From: Candidatus Komeilibacteria bacterium
GTDB lineage: Bacteria > Patescibacteriota > Patescibacteriia > UBA1558
Reading direction: 5' to 3'
Length of the DNA stretch: 64,000 nucleotides
Assembly (NCBI GenBank): GCA_048538275.1
Contig: JBLYPW010000001.1
Location: forward strand, 38,244-102,243
Position 1 is the stretch's first letter; the number at the start of each line of letters is the position of its first letter. Shown here in pieces: positions 5,315 to 37,142 of this stretch. The notes under the pieces were generated by a model. That model was not told where the DNA came from, made no database searches, and was given only the letters and a program-made list of their open reading frames with translations. Made by a program: the position numbers and the translations under genes.

Positions 5315-5465
5315 ATTATCCCTCCTTTTGGCGGATTGTTAAGGTTCGTATTTACTTTATCACTTTAGCTAATAGATTACTTTTTGGCAAGTGACCAAGG
5401 GAAATATAAATAAAAAACCACTCTATTAATGTGTCGGAAGTGGCTTTGGGTTATTTATGAATAAT

Positions 5466-6642: not shown

Positions 6643-8169
6643 TTAGCGGGCATACTCAATAACACGGGTTTCCCGAATAATATTTACTTTTATTTCTCCT
6701 GGGTATTTTAACTCTTGTTCAATTTTATCGGCAATATTGCGCGCCAATTTGGTAGCGGTGTAGTCATCTATTTCTTTGGGGTTCACAAATACTCTAATCT
6801 CACGACCGGCTTGAATAGCATAAGTATGGTCAACGCCGTCAAAACTATTAGCTACCGCTTCTAGTTCGTCTAGACGTTGGACATAATTTTCATAGGAATC
6901 TTTACGTGCACCGGGGCGGGCACCAGAAATAGCATCGGCTACTTTACAGATTATACCTTCTAAAGTTTTGGGGGCGTCTTCATGATGAGCAATGCAGAGA
7001 TAAGCCACTTCTTCGGGTAAGCCGAATTTTTTCAATATGTCATAGCCGATTTGCGGGTGACCGCCCTGGATTTCTTGATCTACCGCCTTGCCGATGTCGT
7101 GTAGCAAGCCACCTTTTTTACAAACAGCTACATTGGCATTTAATTCTTCTGCCAGTATAGTAGAAAGTTTGGCCACTTCTATAGCATGTAATAGTTGGTT
7201 TTGGCCATAACTAGTGCGGTATTTGAGGCGCCCGAGTAGCATCACTAGCTTAGGATCTAAGCCGGTGATACCCAGTTCGTATAGAGTATCTTCGCCTGCT
7301 TTTTTAATATCCAAAGCTAATTCTTTTTTAGCCTCTTCTACTACTGTTTCTATTCTGCCGGGGTGAATACGGCCATCGCTAATTAATTTATCTAAAGCTC
7401 GTTTAGCTAAATGGCGACGAATGGGATTGAAGCCTGATACCAAGATGCTTTCCGGGGTATCGTCAATAATTATCTCAACACCGGTTAATTGTTCTATGGC
7501 TTTAATATTGCGCCCTTCACGGCCAATAATACGTCCCTTCATTTCGTCAGAAGGTAGGTTCACAACCGTGGTTGTGGTTTCTATGGCATGGGAGTGGGAA
7601 ATTCTTTGAATAGCTGTGCCAATCAGTTCTTTAGCTCTATTTTCTAGATCTTCTGTGGACATGGCTTGTAGTTTGTGGATACGACCCAGTAAATCGTTTT
7701 TGATTTTTTCTTCAGTATTATTGATCAATATTTCCTGCGCCTGTTCTTGGCTCAATTGGCCAATTTGTTCTAGCTTTTCCATTTGTCTGGCTTTGACTTG
7801 CTCTATTTCTTTTTTGAGTGCTTCCACCTGTTTAGCTTTATCATAAAGTTTTTGTTGACGATTTTCTAGGTCCATTAACTTTTGATCAAACAAGCCTTCA
7901 CGTTTTTCCAAGCGCTGTTGGAGATGATTAATCTCTTTGCGTCTTTCCTCAGCCTCATTATTAGCTTTATCTAAGACTTTGATGGATTTGTCACTTGCTT
8001 CCAGCAGGATTTGTTTTTGTTTGGTTTTGGCTTCAGTGATGATATCTTCGGCTTTGCGTTCGGCTGAATCAATAGATCGGAAGCCTACATATTTACGGAT
8101 AAGATAGCCAATGCTAAAACCCGCTAGAGCGATTACCACTAGGGCTATTATCCAAAAAACTGTTGTCAT
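6643..8169 (-). CDS. rny: ribonuclease Y
   Basis: N-terminal TM helix, long coiled-coil, KH domain (IIGREGRNIKAIEQLTGVEIIIDD) and HD domain (HDIGKA...AHHEDAP). Confidence 0.85.
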   Translation of the reverse strand: MTTVFWIIALVVIALAGFSIGYLIRKYVGFRSIDSAERKAEDIITEAKTKQKQILLEASDKSIKVLDKANNEAEERRKEINHLQQRLEKREGLFDQKLMDLENRQQKLYDKAKQVEALKKEIEQVKARQMEKLEQIGQLSQEQAQEILINNTEEKIKNDLLGRIHKLQAMSTEDLENRAKELIGTAIQRISHSHAIETTTTVVNLPSDEMKGRIIGREGRNIKAIEQLTGVEIIIDDTPESILVSGFNPIRRHLAKRALDKLISDGRIHPGRIETVVEEAKKELALDIKKAGEDTLYELGITGLDPKLVMLLGRLKYRTSYGQNQLLHAIEVAKLSTILAEELNANVAVCKKGGLLHDIGKAVDQEIQGGHPQIGYDILKKFGLPEEVAYLCIAHHEDAPKTLEGIICKVADAISGARPGARKDSYENYVQRLDELEAVANSFDGVDHTYAIQAGREIRVFVNPKEIDDYTATKLARNIADKIEQELKYPGEIKVNIIRETRVIEYAR

Positions 8170-13899: not shown

Positions 13900-13976
13900 T
13901 TATTATCCTGCTCCCGTAGCTCAACTGGATAGAGTGTCTGGCTTCGGACCAGAAGGTTGTAGGTTCGAATCCTGCC
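13900..13976 (+). tRNA. tRNA-Arg (anticodon TCG)
   Basis: Hand-folded cloverleaf: acceptor GCTCCCG/CGGGAGC, anticodon stem TCTGG/CCAGA with loop CTTCGGA, T-arm GGTTCGAATCC, and an encoded CCA. Confidence 0.85.
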
Positions 13977-14441
13977 GGGAGCACCACCACGTCATAACTT
14001 GCTTCCGCTGTTTCATGCCCCTGAACAAGTCAGGGTCATTCCACTGCTCATCAAGTTATTCCTTGATGCTCATTGCTTAACTCCTCGACAAGCTCGGAGC
14101 CCAAGCAATGCGCATGGCACTCACTTTTCAACTTGCTTCCGCTTACCCACTTTATTTGAGTCTTTAATTTATAAAACAGAATCTATTTTAAGACTCTGTT
14201 TTTTTGAAAGAAAACGTCGCCTAACGTTTCGGCATATCTGATGTCCGCTTTGCGGATATGGATGGAGGCTTTTGTATAAAAGCCGTAACCAGATATGCCG
14301 TGTTATATGATGTACATGTTTTCCTTTTGATTTGCGATAGCAAATCGCTCTTAAAAAAGAATCTGATTTTGTTTTTCCGTTTTGGGCGAAGGGCAGAGGG
14401 GAATTAAAGGGGTGAATGCCCGAGCCCAAAACACCTTACAA

Positions 14442-16046
14442 TTAATTTGAGCTAAATCCTTTTGTATTTGCTGCTTCAAGCGCGCTAAATATAATTTGCA
14501 TGTCTGATTCAAATTGTTCTTGCGTGATATTTCCAGCAACTTCTTTTGCGTATTCTACTTTTTGACTATTTTCTATTTCATCTTTAGATTTTTTATATTC
14601 ATTTGGATAATATTCCTCAAGTGATTCAACTGCTAATTCAAAAATTTGCCCGTTTGTAAATAAATATGGATAGCCAGCTTTAAATTGGTCATATTTTGTT
14701 TGTTGTTCGCTGTTAGGTTTGTCTATTAGAACAACTGCTTTGTCTTTATATATTGGGTTGTCCGATCCAGCTAGTGGAACAAATAATTTATGAACAGCTA
14801 ATAAACTTGGTTCTTGCTCGTCAATATCTCCACCAGCAAATATTATTTTAATTCCTTTATATTTTGTTGAGTAAAAACGCTTAATAACGATGTTAATAAA
14901 CTCAAATTCACTTTTTCCCTCGACTATTATAAAATTTCTAGGTAAGAGTAAGTCAGACGGACTACCACCCAATAGATCAAAGATTACATCAATTTTTTCT
15001 GCATCACTTACTTCTGTTATTTGGGTAATTTTATTTAATTTTTCAACCTTATGAATTTTTTGACAGTCATGATTCTCTACCACTAAAACAGACGAATGCG
15101 TGTTAATGAATACTTGGTCTGTATCGCAAATATCAAGTAAAGCTTTTTTTAAAGCTCTTTGAGCAGAGGGGTGCAGATGTAATTCTGCCTCATCAATTAA
15201 AAAGAGAAATGTGCCACCGCCACTTTGTTCTTTTCTATAATCTGCAAAAGCTTGAATAATAGATAGCATTATCGCCCTTTGCATTCCGTCGCCTTTATCT
15301 TCAGCTTTTGTTTCAATCCCGTCATCCACGGTTGTGTCAAAGCTTTTTAAAAGATCATTGAAATTTGGCGGATTTACTCCAAACTTAACTTTTGTGCCAT
15401 CTGGAAATTGTTTTTGAAGATAAACCTCAACTTTCGTACCCAGTTTATCAAGCTCTTTTCTAACTTCTGACGAATCGCTATCAAATAATTTTGAAAATTG
15501 AGTTTTAAAATCAATGTAATCTTGTGAATTGTCAATAATAGCGGTTAAAACTCCGGATAACATTGTTCCTATGGGATTCTTGTCTTTGTATTTTGAAACA
15601 TCATCAAGGCGTATCTTTGTATTCACATATTCTAATTTCGGTAAAAATTCATTTATTGCAGTATCTAATCCTGACGGATTACCTTTGTCTTCAGCACCAA
15701 CAAGATATTTTCTTTTATGATCTACGCTAGTTTTTAATACAGAAAAGTTAGTATTGCCGCCAAGCATTGTTCTAATTTTAGTTTTATTTGCATCAGTTGT
15801 TAGTTTTTCAATATCAGATTCAATCACATCTTCAAAAAAAATTTCTACGGAAATTTTATTTGATTCTTCTTTATTGAAATGTTCATCTGCTTTGGATGAT
15901 TTCGAAGTATAAAACCAATCTATTGATTCAAAAAAATTTGTTTTACCATGATTGTTCTGACCGACAAAAACTGAAAATTTATTCGGCAAAACTTCAACCT
16001 CTTGAATTGAACGGTAATTTTTTACAATAATTTTTGATATTCTCAT
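14442..16046 (-). CDS. OLD-family ATP-dependent endonuclease (ABC-type ATPase + Toprim)
   Basis: N-terminal AAA_15/ABC ATPase (VFVGQNNHGKTNF Walker A; LFLIDEAELHLHP Walker B/D-loop). C-terminal OLD-type Toprim (IIVEGKSE ... GGDID). Confidence 0.7.
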   Translation of the reverse strand: MRISKIIVKNYRSIQEVEVLPNKFSVFVGQNNHGKTNFFESIDWFYTSKSSKADEHFNKEESNKISVEIFFEDVIESDIEKLTTDANKTKIRTMLGGNTNFSVLKTSVDHKRKYLVGAEDKGNPSGLDTAINEFLPKLEYVNTKIRLDDVSKYKDKNPIGTMLSGVLTAIIDNSQDYIDFKTQFSKLFDSDSSEVRKELDKLGTKVEVYLQKQFPDGTKVKFGVNPPNFNDLLKSFDTTVDDGIETKAEDKGDGMQRAIMLSIIQAFADYRKEQSGGGTFLFLIDEAELHLHPSAQRALKKALLDICDTDQVFINTHSSVLVVENHDCQKIHKVEKLNKITQITEVSDAEKIDVIFDLLGGSPSDLLLPRNFIIVEGKSEFEFINIVIKRFYSTKYKGIKIIFAGGDIDEQEPSLLAVHKLFVPLAGSDNPIYKDKAVVLIDKPNSEQQTKYDQFKAGYPYLFTNGQIFELAVESLEEYYPNEYKKSKDEIENSQKVEYAKEVAGNITQEQFESDMQIIFSALEAANTKGFSSN

Positions 16047-16052
16047 ATTGAA

Positions 16053-16880
16053 TTAATAACCCAAGGCAAGCTGATCAAGCATATCGGGTCCCTTTTCTCG
16101 ACCGACTTCCTGATAAATCTCAAGGACTTGCTCATATGTTCCGGCTCCACCCACCAAATCCCAAAATTCTTTACCAAGTAAAACCTCGTCTTCCAAATCC
16201 ATGTAATTCACAACGAAACTATGCTTATATGTTGCTTTATTTACACCATAGGGGTTATAGGCAGTGGCGTAATATGCTTTTGCTTTTGGATATTGTTTGT
16301 AAGTTATCCCGTGAATTTGTAGCAACCGTCCTGTTGCCTCTAAACATTGTCCTTTATTCGGTTTTGGGCTTTTTATCTCAATAAAAAGTTCCGTGCCGTC
16401 TTTTTTGACAATATATAAATCAGCAATGCTGGTTCTATCTGCACTTTTCCCATCTCCAGCAATTTTAATAATTTCTTCGACAAATTCAGGATAACTTGAT
16501 TTCATTCCACCTGTGCCAATTTTGCTTGTGATTTCTTCAATTCGTTTTATAGCCTTAAGTGAGATTTGACCAGTAACACGATGTCCTCGCTCTGCGTGTT
16601 TGTGATTATCAAGTGCGATAAGACGAGCACACTCTTCAAATGTCGTGCCAAGTTTTGTAGAAAATGACCTTTCAAATTCCGTTATCGTTAGTAGTCCGTC
16701 TGGCAATAAGGATTCGTGGAACGGTTTTAAATCGCCTTTCTTTGATTCTTGGCGCAATGGCCTTAGTTGCTTAGGGTCAAAACCGTTGTCAGTTTTCTCT
16801 TCTACCATTCCTTGAATAAATCCTTCAAGGTAACCTTTAATTAATTGTCTGGTGTTTTTTGTAATCATATTTTTTGCCAA
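16053..16880 (-). CDS. putative type II restriction endonuclease (PD-(D/E)xK fold)
   Basis: ADLYIV...ELFIEIKSPK fits the PD...(D/E)xK catalytic motif. Its 3' end overlaps the start of the adjacent DNA MTase by 16 bp, implying an operon. Confidence 0.5.
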   Translation of the reverse strand: MAKNMITKNTRQLIKGYLEGFIQGMVEEKTDNGFDPKQLRPLRQESKKGDLKPFHESLLPDGLLTITEFERSFSTKLGTTFEECARLIALDNHKHAERGHRVTGQISLKAIKRIEEITSKIGTGGMKSSYPEFVEEIIKIAGDGKSADRTSIADLYIVKKDGTELFIEIKSPKPNKGQCLEATGRLLQIHGITYKQYPKAKAYYATAYNPYGVNKATYKHSFVVNYMDLEDEVLLGKEFWDLVGGAGTYEQVLEIYQEVGREKGPDMLDQLALGY

Positions 16881-18058
16881 ATTAAAATACTTTCATAAAA
16901 TGCGCCATTGCGCCGTCCTGTACGACGATTAACATGGCGTTCAACCCTCCCGATTGATTTAAACCCAACATCTGAGGGATTATATAAATTATGTTTATCG
17001 TTAACAACGATAGCCATAATTCCGTTTTTAGTCATATAATTGCGTGTGTGCAATAATACATCATTTATACCTTTTATATATTCTTTTTTTGCATCTTCTG
17101 AAGATCCTCTTTTTGCTGGTCCAATTTCTCTGGTTTCGTTATTTTTTAACCCAAGTAATTCATAAGCGTATTTATGCTGATCATGATAATCAATTAAACC
17201 AATGTAAGGTGGTGATGTAAAAACCATATCAATATCTTTCGGCAAGATTACTGTTCGTGAGTCATCATGAAATATTTTGACATCTGCTTTAGTTCTAATT
17301 TTGTTAAATTCTTTTACTCGTTGTAGAGCATCAATAGAATAGCGACTTAAAAATTTATAAGCTTCTTGAACAGGCGTACAAACTCTTCTATGTTTAAAGC
17401 ATTTATATGGTGTTTTCTGTGGTTTTTTAGGGAAGTCTAAATCATAATGCGTAACTAATCGAGCTGAACGTGCCGAGCGAGAAAGAATGATTTTTAATAA
17501 ATCTTGATATTCATAGTCTTTTATCAAACGCAAGTAGCAAAGAAGTTCTTTTTTTGTCCTATCTGCAAACCAGTCGTTAATATATTCATTTTTTGTAGCG
17601 AAAAGTTTATTAACTTTTTCATCATTTAAAAAATCTTTTTCGTATTTCGACATTCGTTTTAAGATATCACGAATTTCCTTATCTAAAAGTTCAATATCAT
17701 ATTTATCAGTTTTAACCTTAGAAAGCAGGGTGTTAAAAACAGAAATATCTGTGCCGATTGAATCAATTCCTAGTGCATTTGCTTCAACAAGTGTTGTTCC
17801 TGACCCACAAAAAGGATCATAAACTAGTTTGGGATTGAATTTACGCAAAAAAATTTCTGCCATTTGAGGAATAAATTTTCCCATGTATGGATGAAGTCGA
17901 TGAACGTGCTTTGTTCGCGCTATTTCCGGTAAATCATTTTCCCGCCAATTTAAATTAAGTGTTTCTAAATCTGTATCAAAATTAATGCTTGAAAAATTGG
18001 TCAACGGAGTTTGTTGATATTGTTTAGCGATTTTTTGAGCTACTTTATTATCGTACAT
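16865..18058 (-). CDS. DNA amino-methyltransferase (N6-adenine or N4-cytosine), alpha-type motif order
   Basis: Motif I DPFCGSGTT near the N-terminus and motif IV TSPPY about 200 aa later (N6_N4_Mtase family). The SPPY variant hints at m4C but does not prove it. Confidence 0.7.
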   Translation of the reverse strand: MYDNKVAQKIAKQYQQTPLTNFSSINFDTDLETLNLNWRENDLPEIARTKHVHRLHPYMGKFIPQMAEIFLRKFNPKLVYDPFCGSGTTLVEANALGIDSIGTDISVFNTLLSKVKTDKYDIELLDKEIRDILKRMSKYEKDFLNDEKVNKLFATKNEYINDWFADRTKKELLCYLRLIKDYEYQDLLKIILSRSARSARLVTHYDLDFPKKPQKTPYKCFKHRRVCTPVQEAYKFLSRYSIDALQRVKEFNKIRTKADVKIFHDDSRTVILPKDIDMVFTSPPYIGLIDYHDQHKYAYELLGLKNNETREIGPAKRGSSEDAKKEYIKGINDVLLHTRNYMTKNGIMAIVVNDKHNLYNPSDVGFKSIGRVERHVNRRTGRRNGAFYESILIWQKI

Positions 18059-18231
18059 ATTTTATTGCCTGAGTAAATGTATTAGTATTGTACTTCATTT
18101 CCCCTTATAAATAAATCGTTTTCGTAGCGGAGCGGAGAAAACACCTTATTCCCCTCTATAATTAAAGAAAAAGAAATTTGAAAATTTTTTAAAACAATTG
18201 GGCGTTAGCCCAAAAAAGAAAAGGAATATTT

Positions 18232-18333
18232 CATATAACATCAGGGATATACGAAGTTTTTCTGGAGCGGAGCGGAAGAAATTTGGGAAATTTGCGAGCC
18301 GAGCAAATTTCCTCATAAGCCCTGTTATACGAG
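18232..18333. repeat. GC-rich long imperfect palindromic element, copy 1
   Basis: catataacatcagggatatacgaag ... cctcataagccctgttatacgag, with internal ggaaatttgc/gcaaatttcc arms. Related to the copy at 19409-19495. Confidence 0.5.
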
Positions 18334-18397
18334 GGTGAGCGTAACGAAGTGGAGCGAAAGCGCAGCGTCCCCTTGCGTATGACGCAGGAGCCAGCCG

Positions 18398-19333
18398 TTA
18401 TCTTTTACACACAGCAAGAGCATAAGTATCTTTAGAATCAGAATATATTTTCACACTAGAAAAGAACTTCTCAAGTATTTTTTTAAACTCGGGTTTGGTA
18501 TATTTATAGGATATTGCAGTAATTATAACATCTCCTTTTTTAAAATTTAAAGTTCTTCCGAGATGTTTAATCGTTTTGTCTTTTTTCAAAATATACAATT
18601 CTTCAATCCTAGAATTGACAAAACGAACATCATAAGCAATATCATGTTTTGTTAAACCTAATTGTTGTGGTATCTGAACAAGCCAATTATTAATTATGGT
18701 GTCTTTGTATTCTTCTGTCCAATCTTCATGACCATTTGTTAGACCATTACCAATCAGAAGAATATCATCTTTGTTCATGCTTGTTTTTATTCCATGCAAT
18801 ATGTCCTCTCTGTCAAAATTCCCCAAGGTATTGCCCAATAACATCATAAAATGAGTTTCAAAGCCAGTCTCTCTAAAAAGAGGAGTAATATTATTAAGAT
18901 TTTCAAAGTCGGAAATATTCCAACGAAATTCCAAAACTTCTCCGACTTTCATTTTACGAATAGTTTTGGCGGCTTTTGAAACCATGTAAGAACTAATATC
19001 AATAGGGCAATACCTGATTTTCATGTGCTTTGCTAATTCATGAATAAACAGAGAGGCTTTTTGTCCGTCGCCACAACCTAAATCAATGATATTGCATGAA
19101 CTTTTTGGTAAAGCATGAACAAAATCTTTCATATTTTGTTTTATCAAAGACACCTCTTTCTCAATAATGGATTTCTTGTATCCCTCAGTCTTACTTAAAT
19201 CAAGAAAACCCTGGGCTTGTTTAGGAGTCAGATACCACAACTTAGAATCTGCAACATCCCAAACCCGAGTTTTTCCCTCGAGTTTATATCCTCTTTTGAG
19301 AAGTTCTTTGAAAATTAAATCATTGATTTGCAT
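18398..19333 (-). CDS. EgtD-like (Methyltransf_33) SAM-dependent small-molecule methyltransferase
   Basis: IIDLGCGDGQKASLF (motif I), LGNTLGNF, DDILLIGNGL and the C-terminal YALAVCKR parallel EgtD's LVELGSGTSEK / LGSTIGNL / GDSLLLGTDL / LSLAVR. The annotated ORF start at 19417 runs into the repeat element; the in-frame ATG at 19333 (MQINDL...) is more plausible. Confidence 0.5.
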   Translation of the reverse strand: MQINDLIFKELLKRGYKLEGKTRVWDVADSKLWYLTPKQAQGFLDLSKTEGYKKSIIEKEVSLIKQNMKDFVHALPKSSCNIIDLGCGDGQKASLFIHELAKHMKIRYCPIDISSYMVSKAAKTIRKMKVGEVLEFRWNISDFENLNNITPLFRETGFETHFMMLLGNTLGNFDREDILHGIKTSMNKDDILLIGNGLTNGHEDWTEEYKDTIINNWLVQIPQQLGLTKHDIAYDVRFVNSRIEELYILKKDKTIKHLGRTLNFKKGDVIITAISYKYTKPEFKKILEKFFSSVKIYSDSKDTYALAVCKR

Positions 19334-19408
19334 AATAAGTGAAAATATATTCTTTATAATATAAATCTTGCGATTGAATTTATTTAGGCTGGCTCCGAGT
19401 AATATGTC

Positions 19409-19495
19409 GTATAACATCAGGATTATGAGAAGTTCGCGAAGCGAATTTGGGTGGAGAAGTCTGCAAGACTTCGTAACCTCATAATCCTTGTTATA
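19409..19495. repeat. GC-rich long imperfect palindromic element, copy 2
   Basis: cgtataacatcaggattatgagaagttcgcgaagcgaa ... cctcataatccttgttatat; the outer arms are mutually complementary. Homologous to 18232-18333. Confidence 0.5.
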
Positions 19496-19615
19496 TTCCC
19501 CGTAGGGCTGAAATTTAGTGCAACGTCCCGAAGGGAAATTTCAGAGTCGTCGTGTCTATCTAAAAAATTTGAATTGCCGCCGCCTTTTTTGTTTCTTTTT
19601 TTCTAAAAAAGAAAA

Positions 19616-20980
19616 TTAGGGTGCGAGTTTTTTTGTTTTAAAAATTTTATCATAAAAAATAATCATTAATATTCCTAAAGGAGAAGTTATACCAAAGGTA
19701 CTTTCTTTCAAAAAAGGAAATAAAACTAATAGTAGGATTGTTGGTATTAGAATTGAATAAAAACTTGCGTTTGAAGTAGTTTTTTTAGAATAAATTCCTG
19801 CAATAATTGGCGGAACAAAAATTAAAGCAAGATAAGTAACAAGTAATGATAAGGTAATAATATTTGGTATTAAAAATGCAAATAAAAAACCAATTGTTCC
19901 AAATGTTGCTGTTATAAGTCTAGCATACAGCATTTTCTTTTTTGAATCGAGTTTACTTTTATCAAATAATCCTCTGTAAATAATCGCCGAACCACCAACT
20001 AATAAACTATCAATTGAGGACATAATAACAGCCAGAATTGAAGCAAAGCCAATCCCAACAAGAGAAGGAGGTAAAATTTTATCCATTAGTAAAAATATTG
20101 CAAATTCTTGTTTGATTCCTGAAAGTAAAACTGATGAAACCAGTCCTAAAAATAAAACAATAAATCCTAACAGAATTACAAATGGAATAGAAAGATAAAA
20201 AGAGTTTTTGGCAGTTTTTTCATTGTCAGCGGAGAAAATCCTTTGCCAATGAGTTGTATTTCCAAGATATATAAATCCACTTAAAACAATAACGCCTATC
20301 ATCCAACCAATACCCCCAAACCCAAAAGGATTTAGGTGTCCTTGAGGAACATTGGATAATAAATTTGAAATTCCTCCAACTTCTGAATAACCAATAAAAG
20401 CTAATATTAAAAAAACTATTAAGATAATCCAAAATTGGATAAAATCTGTAATTATATCAATTTTTAAACCGCCAATTGTAGTATATAGAATAACAACAAC
20501 AGCTGATAAAATTAAAGCGAGTTCATATTCTAATCCAACTAAAACAGAAGCCAAAGAAGCAATAGCTATTGCTTGAACTCCTATCCAAATAGTGAGTAAG
20601 AATATTTGTAGGATTCCTGTTAAAATTTTATTTCTTCTATCAAATCTCTTAGCGAAAAAATCTACAATTGTGTGAGCATCATATTCATCACCTATAGTTT
20701 TTATTTTTTTAGCCATAATACCCAGAATTATCATTCCTGCAACAAATGAGATAGGCAACGCTAAACCATAGGAAATTCCTGAATTATAAACTTCTGAGAC
20801 TATGGCAACAACTCCCCCAGCTCCAACAATTGTAGCAACAGTGGAAAAAGTCATAAGCCATAAACTTGTTTTTTTGTTATTCAAAAAATAAGCATTTAAC
20901 GATTCTTTTCTTGAGAAATACCATGCAACTCCAAACATTAATGCAAGATAAACAAATAAGATTATTAGTGTTGTATTCAT
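19616..20980 (-). CDS. sodium:solute symporter (SSF) family transporter
   Basis: Multi-TM protein with the SSF N-terminal signature (...NAYFLNNKKTSLWLMTFSTVATIVGAGGVVA...). Composition is extremely AT-rich compared with its neighbours. Confidence 0.65.
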   Translation of the reverse strand: MNTTLIILFVYLALMFGVAWYFSRKESLNAYFLNNKKTSLWLMTFSTVATIVGAGGVVAIVSEVYNSGISYGLALPISFVAGMIILGIMAKKIKTIGDEYDAHTIVDFFAKRFDRRNKILTGILQIFLLTIWIGVQAIAIASLASVLVGLEYELALILSAVVVILYTTIGGLKIDIITDFIQFWIILIVFLILAFIGYSEVGGISNLLSNVPQGHLNPFGFGGIGWMIGVIVLSGFIYLGNTTHWQRIFSADNEKTAKNSFYLSIPFVILLGFIVLFLGLVSSVLLSGIKQEFAIFLLMDKILPPSLVGIGFASILAVIMSSIDSLLVGGSAIIYRGLFDKSKLDSKKKMLYARLITATFGTIGFLFAFLIPNIITLSLLVTYLALIFVPPIIAGIYSKKTTSNASFYSILIPTILLLVLFPFLKESTFGITSPLGILMIIFYDKIFKTKKLAP

Positions 20981-21288
20981 ATTATAAATTTAAAGAATAA
21001 ATGTATTTATTAAATTTTCTAAAAACTCGCACCCTTTTTATTATATCCTTTGCGATAGCAAAGACAAATTGTGCGAAGCACTAAGGCGGCAATTCAAAAT
21101 ATTAATTTTCACGACGATTGAATATAACTGGTTATTATACGAACTAATGATCGGATAATGTACTAAATTGGTATATTATAGTAACTAATCCTTGGTTTTG
21201 GTAGCATTAAATTACACCCAGATTATAACCTGCTGGATGGAATCGCGCAATTTAGCTAGCCAGTCATCAATGTTCCTATAATGATGAG

Positions 21289-22131
21289 TTATTTAGTTTT
21301 CTTAATATAAAAATCACGGGAGAGTTTTTTTGTCAGCCGTTCGGCTTTGTCGGGATTTTTACTAATGGACAATCTGTTTTTTCCTTGGAGTTGAATAATG
21401 TTTTGTAGTTGTTTTTTATTGTCAGCTGTAAGCTGAGTGGTAGTTTGAAAAAAAGTATCTATTGTTTTGCTAATATTTTTATCCAGCCATACTTCAATCA
21501 GATAATCTTGGATTATGTTGCAATAGTAATTGTCTCCTTTTTTTAATACATTGGCGTTAATATTGTACTGTACATTTTTGTCAGCAAATGCATGGCGCAT
21601 GGCTTTGTCTAGAACATAATCTTTGGCAATGGTAATCAGTATCTGGCGGCCTTGTTGGCGAGCGGTTTGTAATAGTTTTTGTTCTGATTCTGATCGGGCA
21701 TAAGTAAACCACTCGTGTGGATTGTAGACAAAAACAGGCGCGCTATTTTTGGTAGCAAGCATTAAGCTGTGCAGAGCATGTGACCAAAAAATATCTAGCA
21801 AACGTAAATTTTTAAAATAATAGGTAATCTTATCGCCCGGTTTTAGATTGAGAAAATTGCCTGGATCATTTTCTGGGGTAGAGTAGTGAAATTTAGCCAG
21901 GTTAAACCACTCAGCTTGCTCTTTTAACCAATGGAGGTTGAGAGAGAACGATTTTCCGTGTTGCACAATTTTTTCTTCTTCCTTAAGCTGGCGCAAAGTT
22001 TTATATAGTCCTTGTTTGGTGGTGTCAGGGCGATTTTTTTGTATTGCTTGAAGTAATTTTTGCCCGGTTAAAGCTTTATTTTGTAATGCCTTTATAACTA
22101 ATTCTTGAATTGATGGATTATGAGTTGTCAT
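21289..22131 (-). CDS. hypothetical protein (280 aa)
   Basis: ORF only; no recognisable motif. Confidence 0.35.
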   Translation of the reverse strand: MTTHNPSIQELVIKALQNKALTGQKLLQAIQKNRPDTTKQGLYKTLRQLKEEEKIVQHGKSFSLNLHWLKEQAEWFNLAKFHYSTPENDPGNFLNLKPGDKITYYFKNLRLLDIFWSHALHSLMLATKNSAPVFVYNPHEWFTYARSESEQKLLQTARQQGRQILITIAKDYVLDKAMRHAFADKNVQYNINANVLKKGDNYYCNIIQDYLIEVWLDKNISKTIDTFFQTTTQLTADNKKQLQNIIQLQGKNRLSISKNPDKAERLTKKLSRDFYIKKTK

Positions 22132-22271: not shown

Positions 22272-22799
22272 ATGACTATTTTACAATGGCTAAAGAAAAA
22301 GTTCGTGGCACTGAGAAAGTGGCTTGTCACTCCTAATCCATTAGGACATTTAGCGGTATTATTTTTTGTTTTAATGCTATGGTTATTGCGCCTGGCAGCA
22401 GTGGGAGGTTATATTCCTGCATCTTATGCTGATTTTGTCTTGATTGATCCAGACATGACCAGATTGGATTATTATATTGGAACGCCTGCTTTGTTTTCCA
22501 TGTTATTTGCCTTGTGCTTCTTTTGCACCCTATTAATAATCTGGTTTATAAGTATTTTTGTGCTAGTGGGTGCTATTTATGGTTGTGGAGAGTATGTTGT
22601 ATTGACTAAAAAGCACATAATGGGTGTGGCGAGCATGTTTTTGCGAAGCACCCCAGAACAATTAGAATCGTTTAAGGAGCGTGGTTACCATCCCCAGTTG
22701 TTGACTTACAGAAATATGGTACGTTGGTTACTAGGCGGTATTTTCATCGGGTGGTGGCGGCATTTGGGTCAAAAGCTCAAGTTGCGTTCGTTGGTCTGA
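22272..22799 (+). CDS. hypothetical membrane protein
   Basis: Multiple hydrophobic helices; SD ggaggt 6 nt upstream of the ATG. Confidence 0.4.
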   Translation: MTILQWLKKKFVALRKWLVTPNPLGHLAVLFFVLMLWLLRLAAVGGYIPASYADFVLIDPDMTRLDYYIGTPALFSMLFALCFFCTLLIIWFISIFVLVGAIYGCGEYVVLTKKHIMGVASMFLRSTPEQLESFKERGYHPQLLTYRNMVRWLLGGIFIGWWRHLGQKLKLRSLV

Positions 22800-22833: not shown

Positions 22834-23421
22834 ATGGACAATTTTGCCGGTTTTCTTCTGGTATTGATAGTAATTATAAATGTGTATGTAAGAATGAGTG
22901 CCTTGTATCGTGGCGTGAAGGATATTGATGAGACAGAAAGAAAAAAATGGGTAGCCATGGACGAGACACAAAGAAAGCAAAAAGCAAGAAGTGATTGGCG
23001 GGGTGCATGGCAAGCATATTTGGGTGGTATTATGGCTGCTGAATTAGTTGCATCCATCACGGTTATTGTATTATTAGTCAAACCGCACAGTGCCTTTGTT
23101 AGCATTCTTCTGCCTCGGCTCACTGTACCAACAGTTTTGTTTGTCGCTCTCGTTCCTTGGCTGGCAATGCGCTGGAATAGTACTGCCAAGCGAGCAAAGC
23201 AATATCAGGTTTATGGCGGTGATGGTATGATTGGCACCATTGATAGTATCATGTTGATGATCCTGCTTGGTTGTAGTTTTTTGCTCTTTCCAATTTTGCG
23301 CTATAATTGGTTGTTGGCTATTTATATAGCCACAAACTTCATCTCTATGATGAAAGCGTGGCAAAAGCATAAGCAGATACTAGTTCTGGATAAAGCCGAA
23401 GAGTCGCCGGCAGAAACTTAG
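22834..23421 (+). CDS. hypothetical membrane protein
   Basis: ORF with several TM helices. The antisense ORFs overlapping it are ignored. Confidence 0.4.
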
Positions 23422-23536
23422 ACTATTCCCTGCTGCAAATTATCCAGTTCGTCCACTGAAGCAATTGCATATAATGCGATTGATTCGGGGGCGGGCTGGT
23501 TTTTTTTTAGATAAAGTGGTATTTTATAAACATCAT

Positions 23537-24571
23537 ATGGAAGAAAAAGAAGAAAAAAATAGAGTGGTTTCCGGATTATCGCAAGGCAGCGATAAGGTTT
23601 TGGATTTGACTTTGCGGCCGCAAACACTAGATGAATTTATTGGTCAGGATAAGATTAAAGAAAGTTTGACTATTTTTATGGCAGCGGCGCAACAACGCAA
23701 AGAACCGATTGAGCATGTGCTCTTGTATGGCGCGCCGGGGCTGGGCAAGACCACTTTGGCGCATATTATTGCCCGATACATGGGGGTGAATATTAAAGTT
23801 ACTTCCGGGCCGGCGGTGGAAAAGGCCGGTGACTTAGCGGCTATTCTGACCAATTTGGAAGAGGGTGATATTTTGTTTATTGATGAAATTCATCGTTTGA
23901 ATAAATTGATTGAAGAAGTGCTTTATCCAGCTATGGAAGACTATGCCCTGGATATCATTATCGGCAAGGGACCATCGGCGCGAACCTTGCGGCTGGATTT
24001 ACCTAAGTTTACTATTTTGGGAGCTACCACTCGTTATAATTTATTGTCTTCACCCCTACGGGACCGTTTTGGCTCTACTTTTCATTTGCATTATTATGAG
24101 CCGGATAATATTGAAGCTATTATCAGGCGTTCGGCCGGTATCCTACAAGTAGAGATTGATGCGGCGGCCTCCCAACTTATTGCTTCGCGGGCTCGTTTGA
24201 CTCCACGGGTAGCTAATCGTTTATTGAAGCGAGTGCGTGATTATGCGCAAGTCAAAGCCGATGGTAAAATTACGGCTGACTTAGCGGAAAAAGCTTTGAC
24301 TATGTTAGAAATAGACAAGGCCGGTTTGGACGCCATTGACCGACGCATTATGCAGGCGATCATAGAAAAGTTCAACGGTGGTCCGGTAGGGGTAAACGCT
24401 ATCGCAGCAGCTACTAATGAAGAAGTGGGCACCGTAGAAGAAATATACGAGCCTTATCTGATGCAGCTGGGTCTACTGCAGCGCACGCCACGAGGCCGGG
24501 TGGTGACTGCTTTGGGATATAAACATTTGGATTTGGATCCGCCCGTAGATTTGCAGCAAAAGTTGATGTAA
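23537..24571 (+). CDS. ruvB: Holliday junction branch-migration ATPase RuvB
   Basis: [12 protein letters not shown], Walker [16 protein letters not shown], and a winged-helix C-terminus. The start is placed at the internal ATG (MEEKEE...) of the longer track ORF. Confidence 0.9.
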
Positions 24572-36783: not shown

Positions 36784-36865
36784 TTTTTTTGATTTTTTGT
36801 TTTTTATTTTGGGAGATTTTTTTAACCTCTACTAGTAGTTTAGCACACTTTTTTACAAAAGTCAA

Positions 36866-37142
36866 CCCCGTTAGAGGTTTAGAGGGTTTTTTAACCTATT
36901 TTTACTATAATTTTGCTTAGGTTTTGTGTTTAGTGGTTTTTGTTGCCATATATTATATATGGTGTAGGAAAATGTATTTATAGACCCAAACCTCTAACGA
37001 GGCAGACCCCGTTAGAGGTTTAGAGGGTTTTTTAACCTATTTTTACTATAATTTTGCTTAGGTTTTGTGTTTAGTGGTTTATGTTGCCATATATTATATA
37101 TGGTGTAGGAAAATGTATTTATAGACTAAACTTCTCATGAGG
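36866..37142 (+). mobile_element. tandem pair of ~136-bp MITE-like elements with 15-bp terminal inverted repeats
   Basis: Unit A is 36866-37002 and unit B is 37007-37142, separated by 4 bp (caga). The two differ at only a few positions. Each starts with ccccgttagaggttt and ends with aaacctctaacgagg (degenerate to aaacttctcatgagg in B), which is its reverse complement (14/15). Each has an internal TATAAT-like box. Confidence 0.55.

Follow-up and report, generated by a model that had tools for sequence, protein, structure and literature searches.

Clusters of attC recombination sites without an integrase gene (CALINs) have been described for Bacteria as well as for Archaea and carry similar cargo (Ghaly et al. 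2022, PMC9668308). In canonical integrons the crossover falls within 5'-AA↓C-3' on the bottom strand of attC (PMC4792948; the arrow marks the crossover here and below), single-strand recombination is tied to the gain of the I2 helix (PMC4792948, PMC7790495) and the IntI-specific domain is held necessary for the recombination of single-stranded attC (PMC7790495). We have analysed a stretch of 64,000 nucleotides from a Candidatus Komeilibacteria bacterium (Patescibacteriota; assembly GCA_048538275.1, contig JBLYPW010000001.1, positions 38,244 to 102,243 of the forward strand), called the window in the following. Its part from 14.2 to 21.1 kb probably consists of three integron-type cassettes on the minus strand, which together form a CALIN-like array and would be moved, by a recombinase supplied in trans, at folded hairpin sites (Table 1). 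Two of these cassettes, with an EgtD-like methyltransferase gene and an SSF transporter gene (sodium:solute symporter), had already attracted attention in a sequence-only reading, which saw them as single-gene modules framed by short perfect inverted repeats.

Several other described systems come close. The Vibrio cholerae repeats are long and highly similar attC sites that follow each cassette of the superintegron; they are confined to one genus and belong to a canonical IntIA. In the window, too, the sites are long and highly similar and one of them follows every cassette of a chromosomal array, but their family is common to bacterial and archaeal phyla. The folded single-stranded attP of the CTX phage is an example of a folded hairpin that is recombined by a Xer recombinase without an IntI domain. 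Among Xer-like recombinases, the literature has a 'Cand' group that is confined to candidate phyla and has been assumed to act in dimer resolution. The pdif modules of Acinetobacter (PMC7399989) are, like the cassettes described here, small gene modules bounded by recombination sites; these sites have 28 bp (11-6-11) and alternate in orientation, while the window has a single simple dif-like site. The supplements of Ghaly et al. that we searched do not contain the hairpin family, and in the literature that we searched we found no description of such integron-like arrays, or of such recombinases with them, in organisms of the CPR (candidate phyla radiation) or in DPANN archaea, which is not proof of novelty.

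The sequence-only reading had pointed out homologous palindromic elements of about 90 bp outside the short repeats. Both are real and homologous to each other (E1 and E2), and a third hairpin site, E0, marks the distal end of the array; its sequence (TCGCCTAACGTTTCGGCATATCTGATG...) is closely similar to members of an array on a Peribacteria contig (L016; loci from our searches carry L numbers). E1 and E2 have the ends TATAACATCAGG...CCYTGTTATA in common, and a pattern of 21 bases derived from element ends was scanned over 185,579 genomes, one genome per species. Of the 20 loci that it hit, 16 are clearly homologous along the full length of the element, and the hosts of the element include Patescibacteria, Peribacteria, Magasanikbacteria, Dojkabacteria, Woesearchaeota, Iainarchaeum, Methanosarcinales, Atribacteria and Thermodesulfobacteriota. 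A first attC-like scan (AAC...GTT plus pairing of the arms) found E2 only and missed E0 and E1; a covariance model was used instead.

All copies are imperfect palindromes with a length of 84-126 nucleotides and the same order of parts: the R box RTATAAC is followed by an asymmetric spacer, then by a variable but covarying stem and a three-way junction with two mini-hairpins, and a second R box (GTTATAY) ends the palindrome. The outer helix has 7 bp (TATAACA/TGTTATA) and is followed by a bulge of 2 nucleotides (TC), by the pairs AGG/CCT, by the variable helix and by the junction. In an alignment of 18 copies, 13 of the 28 pairs show compensatory changes; among 49 matches to the covariance model 95% of the cells are paired and double changes are found in 22 of 28 pairs. 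None of 500 shuffles attained the observed values, and slid registers also remained far below them. E2 has a predicted DNA fold of -20.7 kcal/mol (z=-5.75) and was kept together with the SSF cassette in two other loci (L032 and L037). Rfam has no family for the elements, neither at gathering nor at permissive thresholds (E up to 10), and returned only the tRNA and chance matches; a hammerhead-like reading of the motif CCTGATG was dropped because Rfam gave no match.

Before each palindrome, in the direction of the gene strand, come one or two small accessory hairpins (module 2 in Table 1). The flank class of the module beside E1 is also found after elements in L004, L009, L011, L016 and L008; nine of ten modules of this GGG type have the CCC partner, and the module in the window has mini-hairpins with GNA triloops on the + strand. 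The other type, beside E2, also follows elements in L001, L015, L007, L032 and L034.

These elements compare well with attC sites in many respects. Their length is within the range given for attC (about 57-141 nucleotides), and each of their boxes, RTATAAC and GTTATAY, fits the attC consensus RYYYAAC...GTTRRRY at 6 of 7 positions; the R boxes are identical to those of a published attC of Hadarchaeota (GTATAAC...GTTATAC). As in integrons and CALINs, the arrays have one orientation and consist mostly of single open reading frames (ORFs), each followed by its palindrome. The crossover G↓TT of the gene strand reads AA↓C on the folding strand, the strand asymmetry favours the strand antisense to the ORFs, sites of one lineage resemble each other, and restriction-modification systems, methyltransferases and membrane proteins are among the cargo. 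In relatives of the window the integrase gene and the first cassette are divergently oriented. Differences are also obvious: what is a variable terminal structure in attC is a conserved three-way junction with GNA-triloop mini-hairpins here, and integrons have neither the accessory hairpin, nor a leader of 70-150 nucleotides in each cassette that is complementary to the cassette's own trailer, nor the dif-like recombinase arm of about 11 nucleotides, nor linked recombinases without the IntI-specific domain.

The folding strand is the strand antisense to the genes (here the + strand, the bottom strand), in agreement with the rule for integron attC sites; the evidence is computational. On this strand G.T/T.G pairs outnumber A.C/C.A pairs by 86:15, and still by 48:15 (p=4e-5) when one conserved wobble pair is left out; the alignment used for this count was fitted to the model and the count is perhaps somewhat inflated. 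The count of loops is independent of the alignment: of the triloops closed by at least 3 bp, 203 on each strand, 75 are GNA (GCA, GAA or GTA) on the antisense strand and 3 on the gene strand, compared with about 6% in the window at large. DNA mini-hairpins with GNA triloops, for example d(GCGAAGC), are known for their exceptional stability. On the antisense strand the AAC at the crossover never varies, in line with descriptions of attC bottom strands (PMC4792948), and the spacer asymmetry of the + strand has the polarity of a canonical attC bottom strand, with a 5' spacer that is longer than the 3' spacer (6 versus 4 nucleotides). An assignment of the + strand as the 'top' strand of attC, made from the position of the bulge, was rejected by the orientation of the ORFs in the arrays and by published archaeal attC sites.

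Arrays with all copies of the element on the same strand occur in Patescibacteria, Woesearchaeota, Iainarchaeum, Methanosarcinales and Atribacteria; there are eight copies in L007 and nine in L008 (both on one Methanosarcinales contig), six in L016 and three in the window. The copies of L007, L008 and L016 are spaced 0.1-1.4 kb; the gaps in the window are 3.9 and 1.1 kb, consistent with the definition of a CALIN, which asks for two or more sites that are oriented alike and separated by less than 4 kb. The longest ORF from one element to the next is on the strand opposite to that of the element in 18 of 23 cassettes; therefore each ORF is followed by one element on the gene strand, and this order is the layout of an integron cassette.

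That the genes are mobilisable as cassettes, as the sequence-only reading had suspected, is borne out by copies elsewhere. A protein annotated from a metagenome-assembled genome of Candidatus Komeilibacteria is 100% identical to the symporter, copies with 96-97% identity are encoded by other Patescibacteria, and the symporter cassette is present in four contexts (the window, L032, L034 and L037). The shared sequence starts at G↓TTATATTCAATCGTCGTG (A↓TTATATTC in L037) and extends over leader, gene, trailer and accessory hairpin into the palindrome, with the leader of the three other loci conserved from this very point on; the DNA before the G is unrelated in all four. A protein 95% identical to the methyltransferase is encoded in a metagenome-assembled genome (MAG) of a Woesearchaeota archaeon (L021), between a hypothetical gene and the genes of the ribosomal proteins L1/L10. 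This cassette shares the sequence of the window from GTTATAC on, including the repeat GGAGCCAGCC beside the gene; downstream of the gene CGGCTGACTCCTGCGTCATAC is kept and then the sequences diverge. Two further methyltransferase homologues (L023 and L029, 87-88% identity), located among housekeeping genes, have neither an element nor the flanking repeats. Because of these homology limits of the SSF and methyltransferase copies, the mobile unit is the gene together with its palindrome, ending at G↓TT in the R box. The short repeats had been taken for the frame of the cassettes; in fact the boundaries are the crossovers inside the hairpins of about 90 nucleotides (Table 1), and the repeats are internal to the cassettes. 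Two loci are decay states of one symporter cassette: in L034 (~7480-7520) the palindrome is reduced to R'' and a few bases, fused to TTATATTCAAT, and in L037 (~7300-7390) a deletion has removed the trailer arm along with most of the accessory hairpin and so lengthened the symporter ORF to 461 amino acids.

The statement that no integrase is present remains true for the window, which has no tyrosine recombinase of any kind in all its 64 kb, but not for its relatives. In L034 a recombinase of 273 amino acids is encoded divergently from the same SSF cassette, 300 bp away, with further small ORFs after the cassette. Recombinase genes adjoin related arrays in at least nine more loci; they are divergent from the cassettes in L003, L012 and L006 as well, and L020 has a gene fragment. 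The array-linked recombinases have 259-308 amino acids and their best NCBIfam match is NF040815 ('XerA-type tyrosine recombinase/integron integrase') with 202-249 bits (cut-off 220). The integron integrase family TIGR02249 is matched in two pieces that skip the profile positions ~180-238, below cut-off. A C-terminal SPLD motif is common to the linked recombinases and IntI1.

A scan of metagenomes with four of the recombinases yielded 80 loci (L039-L118). Elements of the hairpin family were hit seven times, in six loci that all rank among the 15 most similar, and never in the other 65; all seven are upstream of the recombinase on the predicted strand. Several lower-ranked recombinase hits (for example in L065, L106 and L114) span ~900-970 nucleotides for the same query residues. 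These longer recombinases probably carry an IntI-type insertion, and no element of the hairpin family is found near them.

At its proximal end the array of the window is bounded by a simple site with inverted arms, which may be an attI-like or a secondary insertion site. L003 (~1237-1266, TTTGGATATAA-ACCAG-TTATATGTAAT) and L012 (~5395-5425) have similar simple sites, which separate the recombinase gene from the first cassette. The dif site of Pyrococcus abyssi is ATTGGATATAA-TCGGCC-TTATATCTAAA (PMC2958812); the arms in L003 match its arms at 10/11 and 9/11 positions, although the host of L003 is a Patescibacteria MAG, and the simple sites of the window and of L012 resemble it too. This likeness to XerA/dif and XerCD/dif, with simple sites of the form ...ATAA-N5-7-TTAT... 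close to archaeal dif, is matched by recombinases that are XerA-like in length and score. The 5' ends of cassettes follow TTATAYNNNAT, which is an 11-nucleotide arm of the Xer type and not a core of 7 nucleotides. We considered the simple site as a chromosomal dif and set this aside: the cumulative GC skew has a minimum there and not a maximum, and genes diverge there. Gene orientation turns from minus to plus at 22131/22272 and the skew minimum is near 21 kb, right beside the array; together they are an origin-like signature, not a terminus-like one.

The sequence-only reading had left the mechanism of mobility as unknown; the evidence now points to site-specific recombination of the integron type at folded hairpins. 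The antisense strand would fold as single-stranded DNA, and a tyrosine recombinase acting in trans would cut the R box at 5'-AA↓C-3', which corresponds to G↓TT of the gene strand. The partner in strand exchange would be a second hairpin site or else a double-stranded, dif-like site beside a recombinase gene, and the cassette would be excised or inserted as a circle.

Where in this scheme do the short repeats belong? All four arms are where they had been reported: GGAGCCAGCC (18387-18396) with its reverse complement GGCTGGCTCC (19387-19396) around the methyltransferase gene, and GGGTGCGAGTTTTT (19619-19632), which overlaps the last codons of the SSF gene, with its reverse complement AAAAACTCGCACCC (21021-21034). 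The perfect match of the second pair actually has 15 nucleotides (19618-19632/21021-21035), and neither GGAGCCAGCC nor GGGTGCGAGTTTTT has a further exact match anywhere in the 64 kb. A perfect 15-mer pair is also formed by AGAATATATTTTCAC in the 3' end of the methyltransferase gene (18440-18454) and GTGAAAATATATTCT by the gene start (19339-19353). The repeats are beyond chance because they are cores of much longer imperfect inverted repeats. For the flanks of the SSF gene (19546-19632 against the reverse complement of 21021-21118) the alignment score is 62 (shuffles: 21.2 +/- 3.1, maximum 38) and for those of the methyltransferase gene (18377-18454 against 19339-19405) it is 36 (shuffles: 17.0 +/- 3.3, maximum 29.5). 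The arms have 70-150 nucleotides and often reach into both ends of the ORF, in the methyltransferase cassette into the last ~130 nucleotides of the gene and in the SSF cassette over the last ~25 codons. The leader starts ~3 nucleotides past the upstream crossover, and the trailer arm stops 40-65 nucleotides before the palindrome of its own cassette, with the small hairpin(s) filling the gap.

Each cassette has a complementarity of its own, and such pairing is general in the family. Among 22 cassettes from six loci, 16 have a leader that scores higher with the trailer of its own cassette than with each of the 21 others (mean score 40.6 versus 23.8, Mann-Whitney p=5e-9). Cassette 3 of the window has rank 1 of 22, with a weak score (29 versus 21 +/- 2.5). 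The short repeats are the best-preserved parts of these leader and trailer arms, and are two halves of a closing stem (P0 in Table 1) split by recombination. Both cassette copies of the methyltransferase gene, which are close relatives and count as one lineage, have a 5' coding end that is complementary to the 3' coding end (AAACTCGGGTTTGG), in the window at 18485-18504/19253-19272 with 14 perfect bases. In two non-cassette homologues the same residues are encoded and the ends are not complementary: the difference is in synonymous codons, including CGG and CCC, which are unusual in this AT-rich gene.

In a circular cassette the arms would abut the hairpin site and extend the hairpin into one long stem. 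Predicted folds (with RNA parameters) are consistent with this: the circular junction of the symporter cassette has -133 kcal/mol and its integrated context -90 kcal/mol, with -95 versus -71 kcal/mol for the methyltransferase cassette, and the pairs that surround the palindrome in the minimum-energy fold of the symporter junction are exactly those of the 14-mer and of the words GGCGGCAATTC and TCGTCGTG. The closing stem may stabilise the folded site in the circle and, in an integrated single strand, may bring the two crossover points of the cassette together. In a classical integron cassette the first six bases pair with the cassette's own R'' box; the logic is the same here and is carried much further.

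Is the closing stem functional at all? The arms could be by-products of slippage or template switching at the hairpin, or scars of cassette formation that have not yet decayed; we consider this somewhat unlikely, though of all alternatives it deserves the most attention. The leader arm repeats the gene's own 3' end in inverse form, and this 3' end is ancestral coding sequence that non-cassette homologues have as well; the arms are imperfect (~76% Watson-Crick pairs), and L037 has no trailer arm and kept its gene, all as expected of a scar. Decaying scars would be hard to reconcile with pairing in 16 of 22 cassettes from distant hosts in a fixed geometry, with its persistence across cassette copies of 95-97% identity, with the unusual synonymous codons that maintain it in the methyltransferase gene and with a wobble bias towards the folding strand, which is modest in these arms (98:62).

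Other explanations concern the whole array. Genes could be moved as modules of the Xer/dif type by a housekeeping Xer-like recombinase of the host ('Cand' or XerA), without any dedicated integron platform, on the model of integrative mobile elements exploiting Xer (IMEX), of CTX attP or of pdif modules. The XerA-type scores of the linked recombinases and their missing IntI insertion, the dif-like arm at the 5' ends of cassettes, the simple sites of the window, L003 and L012 and the 'Cand' subgroup of candidate phyla all fit this explanation, and still we regard it as improbable. A recombinase gene adjoins the arrays divergently and with fixed polarity in ~10 loci, which is the layout of a platform and not of a housekeeping xer gene, whereas archaeal dif is reported not to be beside xerA; the sites are long hairpins of one orientation, arranged in arrays, and not alternating sites of 28 bp; each cassette carries its own site; and the array of the window is not at a skew maximum. 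The two explanations overlap: they differ in whether the recombinase is dedicated to the array or not. Far less probable is a role in RNA, with palindromes and repeats as terminators or as processing or stabilising stems that frame messengers. Hairpins are indeed downstream of each ORF, leader and trailer of one transcript could pair, and one mismatch of the L021 leader would be a G.U pair on the gene strand. The folding bias towards the antisense strand, seen in wobble pairs and GNA triloops alike, argues against a role in messenger RNA, and neither the absence of an Rfam match nor the precise G↓TT ends in four contexts nor the recombinase genes beside arrays would be expected. Least credible of all are passengers of transposons or miniature inverted-repeat transposable elements (MITEs) with terminal inverted repeats, or repeats that arose by chance, even though inverted repeats flank each gene, the GC content is low and a tRNA gene adjoins. 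There are no target-site duplications and no transposase domain, the repeats are unique to their cassette and not a family, shuffles exclude chance, and the ends of the mobile unit are in the hairpin sites, beyond the repeats.

Several observations weigh against three integron-type cassettes moved at folded hairpins. The array has the operational features of a CALIN and lacks several defining features of canonical attC sites and of IntI: the sites have no extrahelical base in the L box and their central spacer is largely paired, and a small stand-in covariance model, built from only six published, GC-rich archaeal attC sites, misses them, with 5.6 bits for E2 even with filters off. E1 looks degraded, with several mismatches in the variable stem. 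The linked recombinases are not canonical IntI and score best as XerA-type; an alignment with IntI1 and XerD supports, but does not replace, the NCBIfam result in that the IntI-specific insertion of ~45 residues is absent. An intI gene with the I2-helix domain beside the array, which would define a complete integron, is found neither in the window nor in related arrays. The proximal end is a simple site and neither a full palindrome nor a typical attI beside an integrase gene. With no recombinase in the window, the array may be inactive here and may be a fossil. The modest wobble bias of the closing stem and the loss of the trailer arm in L037 count on the same side.

The array stretch has a GC content of 0.30-0.36, lower than its surroundings, and is flanked by a tRNA-Arg gene (13910-13986) and ruvB (23465-24571); between 14442 and 22131 every gene is encoded on the minus strand. 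Pfam confirmed both gene identities proposed by the sequence-only reading (Table 1); an exact-sequence look-up of the methyltransferase and symporter proteins of the window gave no record. Pfam and NCBIfam have no family for the ORFs 21289-22131 (-), 22272-22799 (+) and 22834-23421 (+). The latter two look like small membrane proteins. ORF 21289-22131 was tried as a fourth cassette and rejected, as it has no leader/trailer pairing, no hairpin site and only faint matches to LacI/periplasmic-binding-like proteins. Immediately 3' of the tRNA-Arg gene, before the last hairpin site, a direct repeat of 14 bp (AACTTGCTTCCGCT, 13996-14009/14130-14143) brackets ~120 bp and may be an att-like scar of an integrative element. 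Elsewhere in the window there is a near-perfect tandem duplication (36865-37126, 99% identical, period of 141 nucleotides) in an apparently non-coding stretch, and a pair of repeats (34258-34393/34842-34977) of 136 nucleotides, 88% identical and 584 bp apart.

Table 1. Positions of cassettes, genes, recombination sites and repeat arms in the window
Feature	Position	Strand	Details
Hairpin site E0 (attC-like), distal array end	14217-14310	+	model R1 30.9 bits, E=1e-4; predicted crossover AA↓C 14224/14225
Cassette 3, three-gene defence cassette	14225-18238	-	bounded by E0 and E1
AAA_15 ATPase	14442-16046	-	Pfam; cassette 3
TdeIII-type restriction endonuclease	16053-16880	-	Pfam; cassette 3
N6/N4 DNA methylase	16865-18058	-	Pfam; cassette 3
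Hairpin site E1 (attC-like), methyltransferase cassette	18231-18332	+	R1 83.5 bits; crossover AA↓C 18238/18239
Cassette 2, methyltransferase	18239-19414	-	
Accessory hairpin (module 2)	18333-18376	+	GGG...GCGCAGCGT...CCCC type; between E1 and trailer arm
Trailer arm (P0), methyltransferase cassette	18378-18528	+	holds GGAGCCAGCC, AGAATATATTTTCAC
EgtD-like SAM (S-adenosylmethionine)-dependent methyltransferase gene	18398-19333	-	Pfam Methyltransf_33 E=2.9e-30; cargo of cassette 2
Leader arm (P0), methyltransferase cassette	19242-19404	+	holds GGCTGGCTCC, GTGAAAATATATTCT
Hairpin site E2 (attC-like), SSF cassette	19407-19498	+	R1 85.6 bits; crossover AA↓C 19414/19415
Cassette 1, SSF symporter	19415-21127	-	
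Accessory hairpin (module 2)	19499-19545	+	CCCGTAGGG-CTGAAATTT...AAATTTCAG type; after E2
Trailer arm (P0), SSF cassette	19547-19691	+	holds GGGTGCGAGTTTTT, TTTGAATTGCCGCC, TCGTCGTG
Sodium:solute symporter gene	19616-20980	-	Pfam SSF E=1.2e-32; cargo of cassette 1
Leader arm (P0), SSF cassette	20983-21117	+	holds AAAAACTCGCACCC
dif-like simple site, proximal array end	21118-21145	-	gene strand AGTTCGTATAA-TAACCAG-TTATATTCAAT; crossover G↓TT (AA↓C on + strand, 21127/21128)

These arrays bear on two open questions, the evolution of IntI and attC from recombinases of the Xer type and the origin of cassettes. They combine attC-like hairpins with dif-like arms and with recombinases that have no I2 helix, and this makes the need for I2 in the recombination of hairpins directly testable. 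The leader, an inverse copy of the cassette's own 3' end that continues into coding sequence by way of synonymous codons, is a structural clue to how cassettes originate or are excised. Cassettes that are 95-97% identical in Patescibacteria and Woesearchaeota point to a route of gene exchange between ultra-small symbionts of two domains, and current tools probably miss such arrays or record integrase-less clusters only. We tentatively propose, as a possibility that falls somewhat short of an even chance, that CPR, DPANN and other archaea share a separate integron-like lineage, in which a short Xer/XerA-like recombinase without I2 would act on folded bottom-strand hairpins with dif-like arms, by way of a dif-like site next to its own gene, and in which every cassette has a long inverse-copy leader. 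If this is true, the lineage would have been invented independently or would stand, as a living intermediate, between Xer/dif systems and the classical integrons, and the architecture of leader and trailer would be a mark of how its cassettes are built or excised.

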